NCBI GenBank assembly: GCA_964601015.1
Contig: CAZRLY010000001.1
Location: 1 to 62,809, forward strand
DNA length: 62,809 nucleotides
Source of the DNA: an uncultured bacterium
Lineage (GTDB): Bacteria; Poribacteria; WGA-4E; DTYX01; CAZRLY01
Reading direction: 5' to 3'
Below are positions 65 through 62,279 of the stretch, piece by piece. Below the pieces are notes generated by a model. It was given only the letters and a program-made list of their open reading frames with translations, was not told the DNA's origin and ran no database searches. The position numbers were made by a program, and so were the translations under genes. Each line of letters starts with the position of its first letter. The stretch's first letter is position 1.

Positions 65-1672
65 TCAGCCAGCACAATCGAATAGAGATAATTGTTTACC
101 CACGGTGTTGGATAAGTCTGGCAAAATGTCCAAAATACTATCAGCCGGAGCGTTCGTCAGTTCCTTGGGTTCAATTTTGTGTAGCCCTCCTCCGTAGATT
201 CTGCCCTCGCCCATCAATATATCTGGTGAAATTTCATTTAGAGCGTACCAAACAGTTTTTAGTAGTTCTGGGTTGTCTTTGAGTTCTTTCGCCAACGCAT
301 GCTTTGGATACAACATCAAATATACGTTCGGCGCTGTAGCCTTAGAACGATTGAGGATAAAACGGAATGGTTTTCTATTCCCTTGTGTTTGGCGTCCCAT
401 GTAAGGACAAAGAAAAGGTGATGGCGGGCGATGTTCTTGAGAGTACCAGGGGGAGCGATGTCTGCACAAATAACGTTCGTTGATGCCTCCCTGTTCTCCA
501 ATCTGCAGGTATGCCCATAACGACGGATACCTTGCTCTTACGACATTTTCCGGCAAATCGCAGGCTAATAAAAAGAGTTGCGGATTCAAGATGGGATTTC
601 CGTTGTCGTCAGCCTCAATCTCATTTGCCGTCAAGTATCTGGGACTGGGCAGAATTGGCACTAAGAACTCACCGGGAAGTCTGTATGTTGATATTTGTTC
701 TGCTGTAAGAATAAAGAATTTGTTTGCTCCTGTGGCTATTCCACGTTTTATATTGAACAGAGCCGATAATTTGGCTTTTTGCCCAGCATCGGGGAACCCA
801 CTGGATGTTTTGGAAAATTTAGTCCATTTGACTTCTTGACGTAGTTCGTTTGTTGGTATTCGCTCAGATACCTCTGGCTTTGTCAGTGTGCCGCCGTAAC
901 TAAATTCAACCTGGTAGCCGACTGGCGGTTTTTCCTTTCTGAACCAAACCACAGCGGAAGATACAAGCGCGTCGGCAAATTGTACCTCGTCTGGATTGAA
1001 ACGATGAACGCGCAACAACGTGACATGCTCCAGCAAATACTGCTTAACCTGTTTGCCATAGTTCACATCCATGAACTCACCCGGAATCAACCAGCCTGCC
1101 AAACCGCCGCTTGCCATCCATTCGTGCGATGCTAAGAGAAAATAACAATACAGTCCAGACAAACCGTTCAGTTTTATGCCGATTACCCGCCTGGTGAGAC
1201 TTTGCAGCCTTGATTTCTCCTCAACGGACAGGTGATGGTGTCGGACATAAGGTGGGTTACAGATAAGCAAATTGGCTTTACTTTCGTCCGACGCTGGCGG
1301 CGTTGCTTTTGTAAAGTCCGTTATATTTAGCGTTAGTGGTGTATTAGCCCAGAGCTTTACTGTTCCTTTCCCATAGTGCGGGTCAATTTCATATCCCCGT
1401 GTTCTAGCGATTCGTGACGGAGGAAACACCCGCAACAGAGCAGAATAGAACGCGCCAGTGCCGAAGGCCGGGTCAAGAAAACGAATCTGCTGGGATGTAG
1501 GTAATAGCGTCTTAGCATATTCCAAAATATCCGTAGCTAATACAGTTGGCGTAGCAAACTGTCCAAGTTTGTTCCGCTCGGCTTGTGTTTTCAAAGAGTC
1601 CAGTTGATGTTGAACTTCCAGTCGCCGCCGCTCAATGATGTCAATTAAGTTATTTTCATTGATTATCGACAT
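65..1672 (-). CDS. Type II N6-adenine DNA methyltransferase (gamma-class, Eco57I/TaqI-like)
   Basis: 535-aa ORF. SAM motif I 'FLDPAFGTGAFY' lies upstream of catalytic motif IV 'CNPPYV'. The long C-terminal region is consistent with a target-recognition domain. A 3-nt gap separates it from the endonuclease-like gene. Confidence 0.85.
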   Translation of the reverse strand: MSIINENNLIDIIERRRLEVQHQLDSLKTQAERNKLGQFATPTVLATDILEYAKTLLPTSQQIRFLDPAFGTGAFYSALLRVFPPSRIARTRGYEIDPHYGKGTVKLWANTPLTLNITDFTKATPPASDESKANLLICNPPYVRHHHLSVEEKSRLQSLTRRVIGIKLNGLSGLYCYFLLASHEWMASGGLAGWLIPGEFMDVNYGKQVKQYLLEHVTLLRVHRFNPDEVQFADALVSSAVVWFRKEKPPVGYQVEFSYGGTLTKPEVSERIPTNELRQEVKWTKFSKTSSGFPDAGQKAKLSALFNIKRGIATGANKFFILTAEQISTYRLPGEFLVPILPSPRYLTANEIEADDNGNPILNPQLFLLACDLPENVVRARYPSLWAYLQIGEQGGINERYLCRHRSPWYSQEHRPPSPFLCPYMGRQTQGNRKPFRFILNRSKATAPNVYLMLYPKHALAKELKDNPELLKTVWYALNEISPDILMGEGRIYGGGLHKIEPKELTNAPADSILDILPDLSNTVGKQLSLFDCAG

Positions 1673-56629: not shown

Positions 56630-57619
56630 TCAAAATTCCGACAGGCTTCTAAGTTTTGAAAACTCCATCATAGTACATAGCGCGTTGTTATCGGTTTCTA
56701 TTCCTGCTTCCTCTACGGCTGCTAATGGGTTTAGCCCTGCGAGAACAACCATCCCCACGCATCCTGCGCTGACTGGAATCTCAAGGAGCGGTTGACTGGG
56801 TTTTCCAATTGCGATAACTCCTTCCAACTTAATCTGCTTGAGCTTATCCACAACCTCCTCTACGATGTTCAAACATGCCGCTGGGAACTCGCGAAATCCT
56901 GCCAGAACTTTTCCAACCTCGCCTTTAGCGGCGCTGTAAACATCGGTCATTTTGCTTTTTATGAATATTTCCGCCGGGTCAAGTGATGTGCCATCGTAGT
57001 AAATTACTTCCGTGAATCGCAAGGGAGTTTCTGCGTTTTCTACCTGCACAATTCCGCCGAATTTAGAATACACTGGCACTCGATGACTGAGCAATATCCC
57101 GTTGATTGTTACGGCGCAAACTGTGCCCAGTGCAACCGTGTCCTCAGGAACAATACTGTTACCTATCTCCCCTCCTTCCTCAACGATAGCCACTAAATCT
57201 GTAACGGCAATCTTTGCTCTACATACCTCCTTCATTATTTCCAACGACTCAGGAAATTTATCCTTTGGAATGAAGGAAACATTCAGGATAATATCGCCTT
57301 TTTTGGTATCCAAATCGAAATTCGTTAGAGAGGATAATGTATCTACCCTGTGAATAACCATCCCAACTTTATCGGAAACCAGTGCGTCTTCCACTTCTTT
57401 CCTGCCTTTTTCAGTTATTATCCTTCCCTTCCTGTTGCTGATGATTTTAGTCAAGCCTCTTTCATCCATTATGCGAAGGTGATAGCGTACTGCCCGTTCT
57501 GTTAAATCAACTCCACGTTTTTTAAGCTCTCTGGAGATGATACGCGAACCTATCGGCTCTTTCTCGTCGTTCAAAATGCTTAAAATGGTAATGATTTTTC
57601 TTTCAATATCTTTTTCCAT
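56630..57619 (-). CDS. NrpR-like regulator (winged HTH plus one NrpR regulatory/DUF128-type domain)
   Basis: N-terminal wHTH 'ILSILNDEKEPIGSRIISRELKKRGVDLTERAVRYHLRIMDERGL'. The C-terminal 'VLAGLNPLAAVEEAGIE' resembles the conserved NrpR-domain segment as I recall it. Confidence 0.55.
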   Translation of the reverse strand: MEKDIERKIITILSILNDEKEPIGSRIISRELKKRGVDLTERAVRYHLRIMDERGLTKIISNRKGRIITEKGRKEVEDALVSDKVGMVIHRVDTLSSLTNFDLDTKKGDIILNVSFIPKDKFPESLEIMKEVCRAKIAVTDLVAIVEEGGEIGNSIVPEDTVALGTVCAVTINGILLSHRVPVYSKFGGIVQVENAETPLRFTEVIYYDGTSLDPAEIFIKSKMTDVYSAAKGEVGKVLAGFREFPAACLNIVEEVVDKLKQIKLEGVIAIGKPSQPLLEIPVSAGCVGMVVLAGLNPLAAVEEAGIETDNNALCTMMEFSKLRSLSEF

Positions 57620-57671: not shown

Positions 57672-58814
57672 TCAAATACTAATAGGGTATTGCCCGTACT
57701 TCATCCCTGCTTCAATAAGCCTCTCTGCATTAGCAAGCACATGCCCCAGGTTGCGTGCCGTCCATGTTCCAGCATCTCCACCGGTTGTCCGCAAGATGAA
57801 CCCTCCACCCGATGCGCCGTCGCGGATTGTCTGCTTAACGTATTCTTCCGTTTCATCAGGTGTCATAAAAGCAAACTGTGGCGAGGGGATGTTCCCACAG
57901 AGAAGCATCCTGTCGCCAACCCTGCGTTTGGCTTCCTTCAGAACGACGTCAGCTTGTGGAGGTGGCTCACAGGGTTCGATGGCGTCTATCCCGATTTCCA
58001 CAAATTTTCCCAGGTATTCCATAGCGTTTCCGTGACAGTGGATACGCGTTTTTCCTCCGTATTTGTGAATAGTTTGGTAGATTTTTGCATCGTAGGGGGC
58101 GATGTACTCATCAAACATGGCGTGGGACATCCAAGGCGTCAAAGCCATCTCCATACCACATTGGCTGAAATATTTTGCCTGCAATTTAGGCAGTAGGTAC
58201 TCAAGCTGATTCAAAACGCGATTGACCAGTACATTTAGCAAATCATGTATCAGCGTGCGTTCGAGTATGAGCCATGCGTAAAAATCCTGCCGCAGTGTTG
58301 ACCGAGTCAGTTGACCAAACGGATGCGGCACGCTCACCATGAGTATGCCATCGTCTCCCAATTGTTTGCGCGCTCTGTGAAACGCGCTGGTGTCGCTTTC
58401 CAACAACTTATACGGTGCGTTCATCAATCGGCGCAAATCATCCGGGGCGCTTAGATAGTGTTTCTCCCACGCGTAGTCTATAGTTGAAACCGGGTGTTTT
58501 GTGATGGCGTAAAAATCGCCTGCCGGCGTATGATAAGTACGTTGTATGCGCTTGTATTCGCCTGGCTTATTTTCTATTTCTTTGGTTTCATGCGTATAAG
58601 GCAGGCAGAAGAAACCCCAATCCGGTCCCCAACCGCGCAGTTTTGCGGCATGTTGAGCTATCAACTCTCGAAGTCGTCTACTACGCTGGTCGCGCGCCGC
58701 TTCTGCCACGATACTCATTTCGATAGGTACTCTATCCGGCTCCTGGCAGTTGAATACCCGTTCAAGCCTCTCTCGCGGTGTTAGACTGGGATATTTTACG
58801 GAAATGCTGGACAT
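57672..58814 (-). CDS. Uroporphyrinogen decarboxylase (URO-D)-family protein
   Basis: 'RIHCHGNAMEYLGKFVEIGIDAIEPCEP' and overall URO-D-like TIM-barrel layout. Similar architecture to 17696-18856. Confidence 0.65.
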   Translation of the reverse strand: MSSISVKYPSLTPRERLERVFNCQEPDRVPIEMSIVAEAARDQRSRRLRELIAQHAAKLRGWGPDWGFFCLPYTHETKEIENKPGEYKRIQRTYHTPAGDFYAITKHPVSTIDYAWEKHYLSAPDDLRRLMNAPYKLLESDTSAFHRARKQLGDDGILMVSVPHPFGQLTRSTLRQDFYAWLILERTLIHDLLNVLVNRVLNQLEYLLPKLQAKYFSQCGMEMALTPWMSHAMFDEYIAPYDAKIYQTIHKYGGKTRIHCHGNAMEYLGKFVEIGIDAIEPCEPPPQADVVLKEAKRRVGDRMLLCGNIPSPQFAFMTPDETEEYVKQTIRDGASGGGFILRTTGGDAGTWTARNLGHVLANAERLIEAGMKYGQYPISI

Positions 58815-60737: not shown

Positions 60738-60913
60738 ATCTGCCTTTGTTACGTGAATGCAAGTTTTCTTTCTTGTTTCGATATCTATTTTAGCCAGGGA
60801 TAATTCCCCCTTTCAGAAGTTTGAGGTCAAGATTCGCATCTCGACAGTCGAGTTTGAAACTCTACCTACTTGGGCAACCACATCGGGTTGTACCTACGAG
60901 AGAGTTCGGAAAT

Positions 60914-60960
60914 TAAAAAAGCCACACGAAAGGGATTTAATCCTTTTTTCGGTGGCTTTT
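60914..60960 (-). terminator. Intrinsic terminator after the tRNA operon
   Basis: On the minus strand, the stem GCCACCGAAAAAAGGATT / AATCCCTTTCGTGTGGC is followed by TTTTTT. Confidence 0.65.
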
Positions 60961-60963
60961 GAA

Positions 60964-61036
60964 TGCCGGTGTGGGGAATCGAACCCCAGACAACACGGGT
61001 ATGAGCCGTGCGCTCTTGCCGCTGAGCTACACCGGC
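60964..61036 (-). tRNA. tRNA with CAU anticodon, elongator type (Met, or Ile2 if lysidine-modified)
   Basis: GCCGGTGTAGCTCAGCGGCAAGAGCGCACGGCTCATACCCGTGTTGTCTGGGGTTCGATTCCCCACACCGGCA folds as a cloverleaf with a 7-bp acceptor. It lacks the initiator GGG/CCC anticodon stem. CCA is not encoded. Confidence 0.85.
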
Positions 61037-61122
61037 TGAAAAACGGACATCTAAATCCGTTAATCTATGTGAGAAAAATTGGTTGCGGGGGTAGGATTCG
61101 AACCTACGACCTTTGGGTTATG

Positions 61123-61766
61123 CTTACCACTACAGCTTTCGCTGCCTGAACCATTTGTGGTCTGGACTTTCCCTTCACCCTCGGCTGAACCGTTAGGGTG
61201 CCTGCCGTCAAGTCTCTACACCTTCTCTGAAAATCAGACAACTTTCAGAGCTTGGCTCGGGATTACCACCGTCTGAGGTTTCCCCGAATTTGACAGGTAT
61301 CACACATGAGTTTCCCCATGTGCAGCCCATTGCAAGATTAATTTCCAAGCGTCACGGTATTTGGCGGAACGTGGTTTTCGCTGACGTTTATCAGCCTCAA
61401 CCATGTGAATTTCACTACCGTAACTGATGAACACATCTACGGGAAAAACATAGAACAAATCCAACTCTGGAATATAAACCAAAGCGAAATCAAAATCCGA
61501 TAGCTCATATACATCTCGAATCATTGAGCGGCGGTTTGTTTTTGTCCGACGATTGTCAACCACATAGTTTTGACGTGATTTGTCAAACCATGCACATTTG
61601 ACCTGGATTTTGACGAGTTTACCTCCTATATCGAATACCAAATCGTACGGCAATCGGTCTCCAACAGGGGTAAGAACTCCCCACCCGCGCTTTAATGCTT
61701 CAAGAAGAGCTACCTGTTCAGCAATGTCCCCCTTCAATTTTGTGTCCATATTAATCCTGCGAATTG
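61123..61766 (-). mobile_element. Group I intron (IC3-like) inserted between U33 and C34 of tRNA-fMet
   Basis: The 5' exon ends in U and the intron ends in G (..GTGGTAAG). The 3' 177 nt contain GTCAAATTCGGGGAAACC, CCGAGCCAAGC and GAAGGTGTAGAGACTTGACGGCA..CACCCTAA. These closely match the catalytic-core strings of the Azoarcus tRNA intron as I remember them. Confidence 0.8.
61300..61749 (-). CDS. Intron-encoded PD-(D/E)XK homing endonuclease (I-Ssp6803I-like)
   Basis: 149 aa, starting 17 nt into the intron. 'KGDIAEQVALLEALKRGWGVLTPVGDRLPYDLVFDIGGKLVKIQVKC' fits the small PD-(D/E)XK family that includes the cyanobacterial tRNA-fMet intron endonuclease. Confidence 0.7.
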   Translation of the reverse strand: MDTKLKGDIAEQVALLEALKRGWGVLTPVGDRLPYDLVFDIGGKLVKIQVKCAWFDKSRQNYVVDNRRTKTNRRSMIRDVYELSDFDFALVYIPELDLFYVFPVDVFISYGSEIHMVEADKRQRKPRSAKYRDAWKLILQWAAHGETHV

Positions 61767-61832
61767 AGCCCAACGAGCTTCCAAACTGCTCCACCCCGCG
61801 TCAATGAGAAACAAGAAAATTTAGCGGTGCAA

Positions 61833-61918
61833 TGGGCGAAGAGGGATTTGAACCCTCACGCTCTTATAAGGAGCGAGGGATTTTAAGTCCCTTGTGTCTA
61901 CCATTCCACCACTCGCCC
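61833..61918 (-). tRNA. tRNA-Leu(UAA), intronless
   Basis: GGGCGAGTGGTGGAATGGTAGACACAAGGGACTTAAAATCCCTCGCTCCTTATAAGAGCGTGAGGGTTCAAATCCCTCTTCGCCCA. Long variable arm. CCA is not encoded. Confidence 0.9.
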
Positions 61919-61943
61919 ATTTTCAAATCACTGTCCTTATATT

Positions 61944-62279
61944 CTAATATATAACTTTCGTTTTGTCAAGTTCTTTTTTCATTTTTTGGGGTAAATTTCT
62001 ATTTTTTATGGACGATACGAGCCGGTAAACTGTTTCCCCCTCTTTAATATACCCTTGTTCCCTGGCAACCATTTCTCTGGTTAATTCATCATTTTGCAAC
62101 CGCTCAACGTAATCAAGTCGTTCGTCCCGTTTGGCTTCAAGTTCTTTTATTGTAGCGATATAGCTTCGCCGTATCTTTTTACTCTGCCGCCAATATTTGA
62201 ATCCATCAACAAATCTGCATGAACTCAAAGCGAAAAGGGGTATAGCTAACAATAATAGTATAATTTGGACGATACGCAT
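61944..62279 (-). CDS. ftsB: Septum formation initiator (FtsB/DivIC-like)
   Basis: N-terminal TM helix, then a coiled coil and 'EMVAREQGYIKEGETVYRLV'. The position downstream of eno is a common synteny. Confidence 0.65.
   Translation of the reverse strand: MRIVQIILLLLAIPLFALSSCRFVDGFKYWRQSKKIRRSYIATIKELEAKRDERLDYVERLQNDELTREMVAREQGYIKEGETVYRLVSSIKNRNLPQKMKKELDKTKVIY

Follow-up and report, generated by a model that had tools for sequence, protein, structure and literature searches.

We examined positions 1–62,809 of contig CAZRLY010000001.1 from an uncultured bacterium, a stretch called the window below, and found that its initiator tRNA gene (tRNA-fMet) is interrupted by a 644-nt insertion at 61123–61766. 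The insertion is very probably a mobile group I intron of the tRNA-fMet/I-Ssp6803I kind, and the gene that it occupies is orthologous to the normal initiator tRNA gene of the host. This reading is carried by the exons and the exact intron boundaries, by a ribozyme of recognized family and conserved structure, by an endonuclease of recognized family that is under purifying selection, and by an empty site in sister lineages. All of the intron, exon and tRNA-cluster features lie on the minus strand, and labels such as L002 or L093 denote the individual relative loci or contigs that were compared.

The initial annotation had placed two tRNA-fMet halves 644 nt apart and proposed that joining them after U33 (...GGGCT) and after an intron-terminal G gives a 77-nt initiator tRNA. 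The halves indeed occupy 61800–61767 and 61122–61080 with a spacing of exactly 644 nt, and ARAGORN identifies the joined exons as a 77-nt tRNA-Met(CAT). The 5′ exon identified by ARAGORN (61767–61800; 34 nt, tRNA positions 1–33) ends ...GGGCU, U33 being the nucleotide immediately before the 5′ splice site (position −1), while the 3′ exon (61080–61122; 43 nt, CATAACC...CCA), delimited by ARAGORN and by comparison with the empty site, runs from C34, A35 and U36 to an encoded CCA. Between them the intron begins CAAUUCGC... and ends ...GUGGUAAG; its 3′ end reads ...GTGGTAAG, and the terminal base, the omega G, is nucleotide 61123. The C1-A72 mismatch, GGG/CCC stem and CAU noted earlier all appear in the ARAGORN cloverleaf, where the joined exons show the initiator hallmarks of an unpaired C1/A72, A11-U24, a GGG/CCC anticodon stem, a D-stem of GAGC/GCUC and the anticodon CAU. 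Intron-aware tRNA searching of the raw sequence, for which ARAGORN's intron mode was used, recovered the same interrupted gene, reported as i(35,644). In its default mode ARAGORN misses the interrupted tRNA-fMet and reports only tRNA-Leu(UAA) at 61919–61832 and tRNA-Met at 61036–60964.

Sister loci were found through homologues of the adjacent DivIC-like protein and represent three lineages, with DivIC identities to the window of 86% (L093), 77% (L094/L095) and 69% (L096). All three share the order enolase, DivIC, tRNA-Leu(UAA), tRNA-fMet, tRNA-Met and acetyltransferase, and in all three tRNA-fMet is uninterrupted. The tRNA-fMet of L094/L095 is identical to the predicted spliced product at 77 of 77 positions, the difference from the window being exactly 644 bp, and the intron boundaries are therefore confirmed at the DNA level. 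The window's cluster of tRNA-Leu(UAA), tRNA-fMet and tRNA-Met likewise sits downstream of enolase and ftsB/divIC. The empty site also identifies the interrupted gene as orthologous to the initiator gene normally found in the clade. Its exons also carry the clade's own unusual D-loop (AGUUUGGAAGC), which is common to the intron-less sisters. An identical 644-nt intron allele is present on six metagenome contigs, which represent at least five samples, and every contig long enough to show the neighbouring genes has the same ones.

The ribozyme matches the Rfam model RF00028 (Intron_gpI) at 61344–61147 over the full model (1–253), scoring 63.1 bits where the gathering score is 50 (E = 1.2e-13). 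Together with the exon join and family covariation, this match bears out the proposed IC3-type group I intron after U33. Insertion between U33 and C34 of tRNA-fMet, established by the exon join and the L094/L095 empty site, makes it a member of the fMet.2Ug type. The core strings GTCAAATTCGGGGAAACC, CGAGCCAAGC and GAAGGTGTAGAGACTTGACGGCA, which had been recognized in the last 177 nt of the insert, are present, with the correction that the core from GTCAAA to the intron end measures 172 nt. Full-length alignment was obtained with tRNA-fMet intron copies from Snowella, Scytonema and Leptolyngbyaceae at 73–77% identity. For 61 aligned family members, we drew a P2–P9 structure with a P7 pseudoknot by hand and then tested its helices P2, P3, P4, P5, P6/6a, P7 pseudoknot, P8/8a and P9/9a/9b. 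Standard pairs occupy 96.2% of the alignment cells, falling to 33–41% in a control in which the 3′ partners were slid by 1–3 columns. Changes on both sides of a pair occur at 42 of the 62 pairs across the relatives, and none of 500 shuffles matched the observed pairing and covariation values. P7 is 100% paired and invariant, as are the guanosine-site strings; the terminal G is conserved in all rows but the truncated row L087. The window's copy retains 60 of the 62 family base pairs, both failures falling in P9a.

Individual helices can be placed precisely within this structure. P2 (61302–61323) is a hairpin with a GAAA tetraloop in which 9 of 9 pairs are compensatory in the family. The segment from P3 to the P7 5′ strand (61201–61297), which contains J3/4 AAA and encloses P5, comprises P3 (61297–61292 with 61206–61201; 5 of 6 pairs compensatory), P4 (61288–61282/61262–61256), P6/P6a (61255–61221; 8 of 8 P6a pairs compensatory) and the invariant P7 5′ strand GAGACU (61216–61211). 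In the following P8-J8/7-P7 3′ segment (61164–61200), P8 pairs 61200–61195 with 61181–61176 and has an inner CGG/CCG (8 of 9 pairs compensatory), and the P7 3′ strand AGUCC (61168–61164) completes the pseudoknot and the guanosine-binding helix. The P9 region extends to the omega G (61123–61161), with P9 formed by ACCAC (61161–61157) and GUGGU (61130–61126) and enclosing P9b (61145–61132), a hairpin with a GAAA loop that was assigned from the family alignment. Folding of the intron after deletion of the ORF gave z = −4.9, with a centroid that shows P1, the P1 extension, P2, P3, P4 and P8.

The splice-site region follows the group I rules, having U at −1, a U·G wobble in P1, the guide AUGGGC and G as the last intron base. 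The 5′ strand of P1 (61765–61769), which appears as a helix in the centroid fold, consists of exon GCU and intron CA and is complementary to UGGGC of the internal guide sequence, with the U33·G wobble at the splice site. The guide (AUGGGC, 61325–61330), whose GGGC is invariant in the 61 aligned sequences, is predicted to pair GGC with exon GCU (P1) and UG with intron CA before the first step, and AUG with the 3′-exon CAU (P10); since the guide pairs with each of them, the intron and the 3′ exon both start with CA. P1 is prolonged by an 11-bp duplex between GCAGGAUUAAU (61750–61760) and AUUAAUCUUGC (61332–61342), the latter within the last codons of the ORF, and the ORF occupies the loop that this stem closes. 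The stem covaries: over 73 loci, the mean for cognate P1-extension duplexes is −13.6 kcal/mol, compared with −7.7 kcal/mol for non-cognate ones.

The intron contains an open reading frame (ORF) of 149 aa (61300–61749), with its ATG at 61749 (intron nucleotide 18) and its stop at 61300, that encodes a homing endonuclease of the I-Ssp6803I family (PD-(D/E)XK, Pfam PDDEXK_5). Alignment to the I-Ssp6803I structure (PDB 2OST) gave E = 1e-64 with 99 of 146 positions identical (68%), and the match to PF11645 PDDEXK_5 reached 177.5 bits against a cut-off of 26.1, which upholds the family assignment made initially. The ORF lies inside the intron (61749–61300 within 61766–61123) whose insertion site its product is predicted to target. 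Comparison with 244-nt ORF-less Nostocales introns and about 70 ORF-bearing relatives places its 450 nt in the P1 loop. The start first proposed, 17 nt into the intron, was right; the accompanying statement that the ORF ends just before the ribozyme was not, as its final ~15 codons extend over the 3′ strand of P1, the guide and P2, and its UGA stop (61302–61300) overlaps the last base of P2. The P1 extension contains, in its 5′ strand, an AGGA Shine-Dalgarno-like motif, and the AUG is immediately next to the stem, so ribozyme folding and endonuclease translation probably compete. A longer ORF of 164 aa (61300–61794) starting with GTG within the 5′ exon was rejected as a read-through artefact rather than a real start.

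D36...Q49-x-K51, the putative catalytic PD-(D/E)XK positions, show no variation in 20 family members, one of them the window's copy. Endonuclease activity and specificity are predicted for the ORF product. Against ten relatives, over codons 1–132, the ratio of nonsynonymous to synonymous substitution (dN/dS) is 0.03–0.11 wherever dS is computable, and synonymous differences amount to 0.58–0.85 per site, near or beyond saturation. The endonuclease is a maintained gene under strong purifying selection. A protein search returned 2186 clusters, of which the best 120 are 76–99% identical; a profile search of the ORF against NCBIfam gave no match, so that no model of that NCBIfam release underlies the name that NCBI gives to homologues. 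That name, "group I intron-associated PD-(D/E)XK endonuclease", is attached to homologues from Anaerolineae and Pseudomonadota.

The arrangement had been thought to be described for a few cyanobacteria, a view that is now outdated. Using one genome per GTDB species, we found a relative of the endonuclease encoded in 307 species genomes. By the record titles of the best 80 of these 307, 53 are labelled non-cyanobacterial, under about 13 phylum or class labels besides cyanobacteria: the labels are cyanobacteria (25), Chloroflexota (15), Nitrospirota (12), Acidobacteriota (8), Pseudomonadota (5), Deltaproteobacteria, Methylomirabilota, Actinomycetota and Eremiobacterota/Vulcanimicrobiota (2 each), and Omnitrophota, Patescibacteria, Elusimicrobia, Rhodothermales and Clostridia (1 each), with 2 unclassified. 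Each locus was typed with ARAGORN in intron mode, and at nearly all non-cyanobacterial loci with both exons the ORF lies inside a tRNA-fMet intron of 638–680 nt (602 nt in L015). The nearest endonuclease relatives are L087 (87%) and L088 (86%), both beside two-component regulators, and an Anaerolineales relative has an intron of 84% nucleotide identity in an unrelated genomic context. Introns that are 92–99% identical occur in metagenome-assembled genomes (MAGs) labelled Nitrospirae, Methylomirabilota and Patescibacteria (L009, L033, L042, L045 and L072), with 300-bp flanks that are mostly unrelated. Near-identical introns between unrelated flanks argue for movement between lineages, but MAG labels can be wrong, and the pattern suggests either recent cross-lineage transfer among these loci or mislabelled bins.

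The window's host is not a cyanobacterium, as the initial annotation had judged from gene content. The window encodes a BamA/Omp85 protein, a sulfatase, a heparinase-like protein, a PA14 protein, an NrpR-type regulator and URO-D-like proteins, and the best named relatives of its tyrosyl-tRNA synthetase (TyrRS) belong to Candidatus Poribacteria (63–64%) and Armatimonadota (62%); gene content and TyrRS relatives thus agree in placing the host outside the cyanobacteria.

Several observations weigh against the interpretation of the insertion as a mobile, functional intron acquired by this host. The 3′ strand of P9a (61146–61156) is deleted in the window's lineage, and the deletion makes possible an alternative local hairpin, GACCA-CAAA-UGGUU, that would compete with P9. 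Guanosine-dependent splicing of the window's intron is a prediction from conserved structure. The endonuclease gene is highly diverged at synonymous sites from all known relatives (proportion of synonymous differences, pS, at least 0.58), so the gain was not recent and none of these relatives stands out as the donor. A search for a transfer vector found no close endonuclease homologue in viral contigs, plasmids or phages, the phage matches being limited to PD-(D/E)XK nucleases 29–34% identical. Finally, the placement of the host depends on one marker protein and a few named matches.

The saturated synonymous sites, which point to long residence, are also what speaks for the most durable alternative, namely that the common ancestor of the clade already had the intron and that the three sister lineages lost it by precise deletion. 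Precise loss is known for group I introns. This history would require two or three independent precise losses, depending on how the four lineages branch, in place of one gain. It also fits poorly with nearest relatives of the intron in unrelated taxa and contexts, such as the Anaerolineales copy and L087/L088, and with the 92–99% identical introns found across differently labelled phyla in the family. Vertical inheritance is accordingly unlikely, and the horizontal acquisition raised as a possibility at the outset gains support from the exact empty site in three sister lineages: with all three intron-less, a single gain is the more parsimonious history, which argues for gain of the intron by homing in the window's lineage. 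L002, which bears the intron, and L093, an intron-less contig of 3.7 kb with the same anticodon-arm target, both come from JGI sample 3300009431, so the community that harbours the intron also contains a potential recipient for homing. Pattern scans of metagenome contigs for the 77-nt spliced tRNA and for a 40-nt core gave no match but are uninformative, as the collection missed L093; a reading of intron fixation drawn from these scans was withdrawn, since L093 carries the 40-nt pattern and yet was missed. We likewise rejected a footprint of exon co-conversion, for which the T-stem GTAGG/CCTAC of the window versus GAAGG/CCTTC of L093 had been a candidate, because the intron-less L094/L095 share the window's version.

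Less credible still is a decaying relic, in which the intron no longer splices (for example through the P9a deletion), the gene is dead and another tRNA-fMet serves initiation. P9a is truncated only in the window's lineage and is kept in all close relatives, including L087 and L088 (for instance CUGGUUCAGCCAG in L007), and a second initiator gene is possible elsewhere in the genome, the analysis having covered the window. P9a is nonetheless peripheral, and family members differ widely in both its length and its sequence. Decay is further at odds with exons that are perfect and identical to the sister lineage's working gene, with the intact 60 of 62 family base pairs, with a full-length ORF under strong purifying selection, with a locus orthologous to the sisters' initiator gene in the cluster, and with the persistence of the same allele in six contigs from at least five samples. 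The remaining explanation, a cyanobacterial fragment joined to a non-cyanobacterial contig during assembly or binning, could be entertained for a metagenome-derived sequence in view of the classical cyanobacterial hosts, but it is effectively refuted already by the recurrence of these junctions and neighbours on contigs assembled independently from different samples, by exons with the D-loop of the clade and its intron-less sisters, and by an endonuclease only 68% identical to the Synechocystis enzyme and 73–80% identical to other cyanobacterial copies.

If the insertion is a mobile intron of this kind, a coherent mechanism can be proposed. The three-tRNA cluster would be transcribed, probably from a promoter-like site, TTGACA-17-TAGAAT (61941–61969), that lies 5′ of tRNA-Leu and has 11 of 12 consensus matches; on this consensus match, the site is a candidate promoter for the three-tRNA unit. 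Pairing of the guide AUGGGC with the last three exon bases, GCU, would set the U33·G wobble at the 5′ splice site, and the 11-bp P1 extension would close off the 450-nt ORF as a loop, leaving P2–P9 free to fold into the catalytic core. Free guanosine would then attack after U33, the guide would next pair with the 3′-exon CAU, and the omega G (61123) would enter the P7 site, with ligation of the exons yielding the 77-nt initiator tRNA with anticodon CAU. At the DNA level, the predicted target of the ORF product is the pseudo-palindromic anticodon-arm DNA of a tRNA-fMet gene that lacks the intron; once cut, such a gene would be repaired from the intron-bearing copy, and the intron would spread. 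Placement of the ribosome-binding motif and AUG at the P1 extension could add translational control, with folding and translation in competition.

Comparable elements are known. The Synechocystis intron is the described prototype, with a length of 655 nt and an endonuclease of 150 aa (PMC1995217, Table 1), and a 23-bp target is given for I-Ssp6803I (PMC3384342). The type fMet.2Ug is one of four classical types of bacterial tRNA group I intron, all IC3 by GISSD, and tRNA introns are tabulated by phylum in the same preprint (Williams 2020, bioRxiv 10.1101/2020.01.27.920355). The window shares with Synechocystis sp. PCC 6803 the host gene and the insertion site after U33 and is similar in size (644 nt and 149 aa versus 655 nt and 150 aa), with a 68% identical endonuclease. 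It differs in its host, an uncultured non-cyanobacterial bacterium, in a U-A pair at the anticodon-stem target (GUUGGGCU...CCCAA) where Synechocystis-type genes have C-G (GUCGGGCU...CCCGA), and in its truncated P9a hairpin. The Synechocystis sp. PCC 6803 tRNA-fMet intron encoding I-Ssp6803I was reportedly described by Bonocora and Shub in 2001; its GenBank record is U10482, and 2OST is the structure of its endonuclease.

The IC3 introns of Azoarcus sp. BH72 tRNA-Ile(CAU) and Anabaena tRNA-Leu(UAA) similarly place a small IC3 core in the anticodon loop of a tRNA, with GAAA tetraloops capping P2 and P9b, and follow the U·G wobble and omega G rule. They occupy other tRNAs and insertion positions and lack an ORF, whereas the window's intron has a 450-nt ORF in its P1 loop. 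The strings GUCAAAUUCGG, GAGCCAAGC and GAAGGUGUAGAGACU are presumably common to Azoarcus. Phage T4 td with I-TevI, along with other mobile group I introns that bear an ORF, offers a further parallel, as a self-splicing intron with an intron-encoded homing endonuclease whose ORF is looped out of the ribozyme and whose ribosome-binding site lies within RNA structure; its endonuclease, however, has a GIY-YIG fold rather than PD-(D/E)XK, and it is phage-borne in protein-coding host genes, in contrast to the chromosomal tRNA gene of the window.

The remaining features of the cluster are an uninterrupted tRNA-Leu(UAA) (61832–61919), which comes first, and an elongator-type tRNA-Met(CAU) (60964–61036), which comes last, both identified by ARAGORN and Rfam. 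The latter has G1-C72, is without the GGG/CCC anticodon stem and is not a second initiator. A terminator-like hairpin with a U run follows it (60912–60960; RNAfold, −20.8 kcal/mol) and is kept in the sister loci. Further genes of mobile or defence type elsewhere in the window encode a DDE transposase (PF01609; 42354–43601, plus strand) and a protein with an Eco57I-type restriction-modification methylase domain (65–1672, minus strand), and the TyrRS gene is immediately preceded by one for an HNH endonuclease (L089, 1–155). The NrpR-type regulator (PF01995), of a family best known from methanogens, adjoins URO-D/MtaA-like genes (56630–57619 and 57672–58814, both on the minus strand), and the same pair occurs in L002.

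The family comparison yielded further observations. A set of loci, mostly from Nostocales (L029, L040, L049, L052–L055, L057–L059, L062–L068, L070, L073, L075, L077, L078, L084 and L086), have an ORF-less tRNA-fMet intron of 242–297 nt with a free-standing I-Ssp6803I-like ORF about 25 nt to about 1.2 kb downstream. In the loci inspected, a terminator-like hairpin lies between the tRNA gene and this ORF, and the free-standing ORF keeps a 3′ tail similar to the P1-3′/P2 region of the intron, as if the ORF had moved out of the intron. Five loci from Anaerolineae, Nitrospirae and Muproteobacteria (L008, L011, L013, L014 and L016) have an initiator tRNA of the form UGCGGGG...CCCCGCUA, with U1/U72 instead of the usual C1/A72. 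Among database homologues of the endonuclease (P0095, P0064, P0031, P0034, P0109 and P0117 are examples with extensions), some carry an N-terminal extension that is translated tRNA 5′ exon (…VEQ…), and others a C-terminal extension that reads into the ribozyme core (…VKFGEA…/…VKFGEAV…). Database lengths of 160–218 aa for this endonuclease are annotation artefacts, and because these extensions are translated exon or ribozyme, they independently show those homologues to be in the same intron arrangement.

This locus adds a cleanly documented non-cyanobacterial host for the tRNA-fMet/I-Ssp6803I intron, and sister lineages that co-occur with it provide the exact empty site. The kind of intron is not new, and databases already show it outside the cyanobacteria, given the typing of Williams (2020) and the names of NCBI homologues; what is new here is the host clade, and nothing mechanistically new is indicated for the window. 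Relatives in 307 species genomes give the element a far wider distribution than is stated in the reviews consulted (2007–2014). In such genomes default tRNA callers overlook the initiator tRNA gene, and gene callers yield endonuclease "proteins" with translated tRNA exon or ribozyme sequence, both of which bear on MAG completeness estimates and annotation. It is a doubtful but possible conjunction that the I-Ssp6803I-type intron is pan-bacterial and still crossing phyla without an obvious phage or plasmid vector, with its endonuclease under selection, and that the window's copy is the sole initiator gene, served by a ribozyme with a remodelled P9. Should this be the only initiator tRNA gene of the organism, all translation initiation would depend on a guanosine-dependent ribozyme, and the supply of initiator tRNA could be coupled to splicing efficiency.

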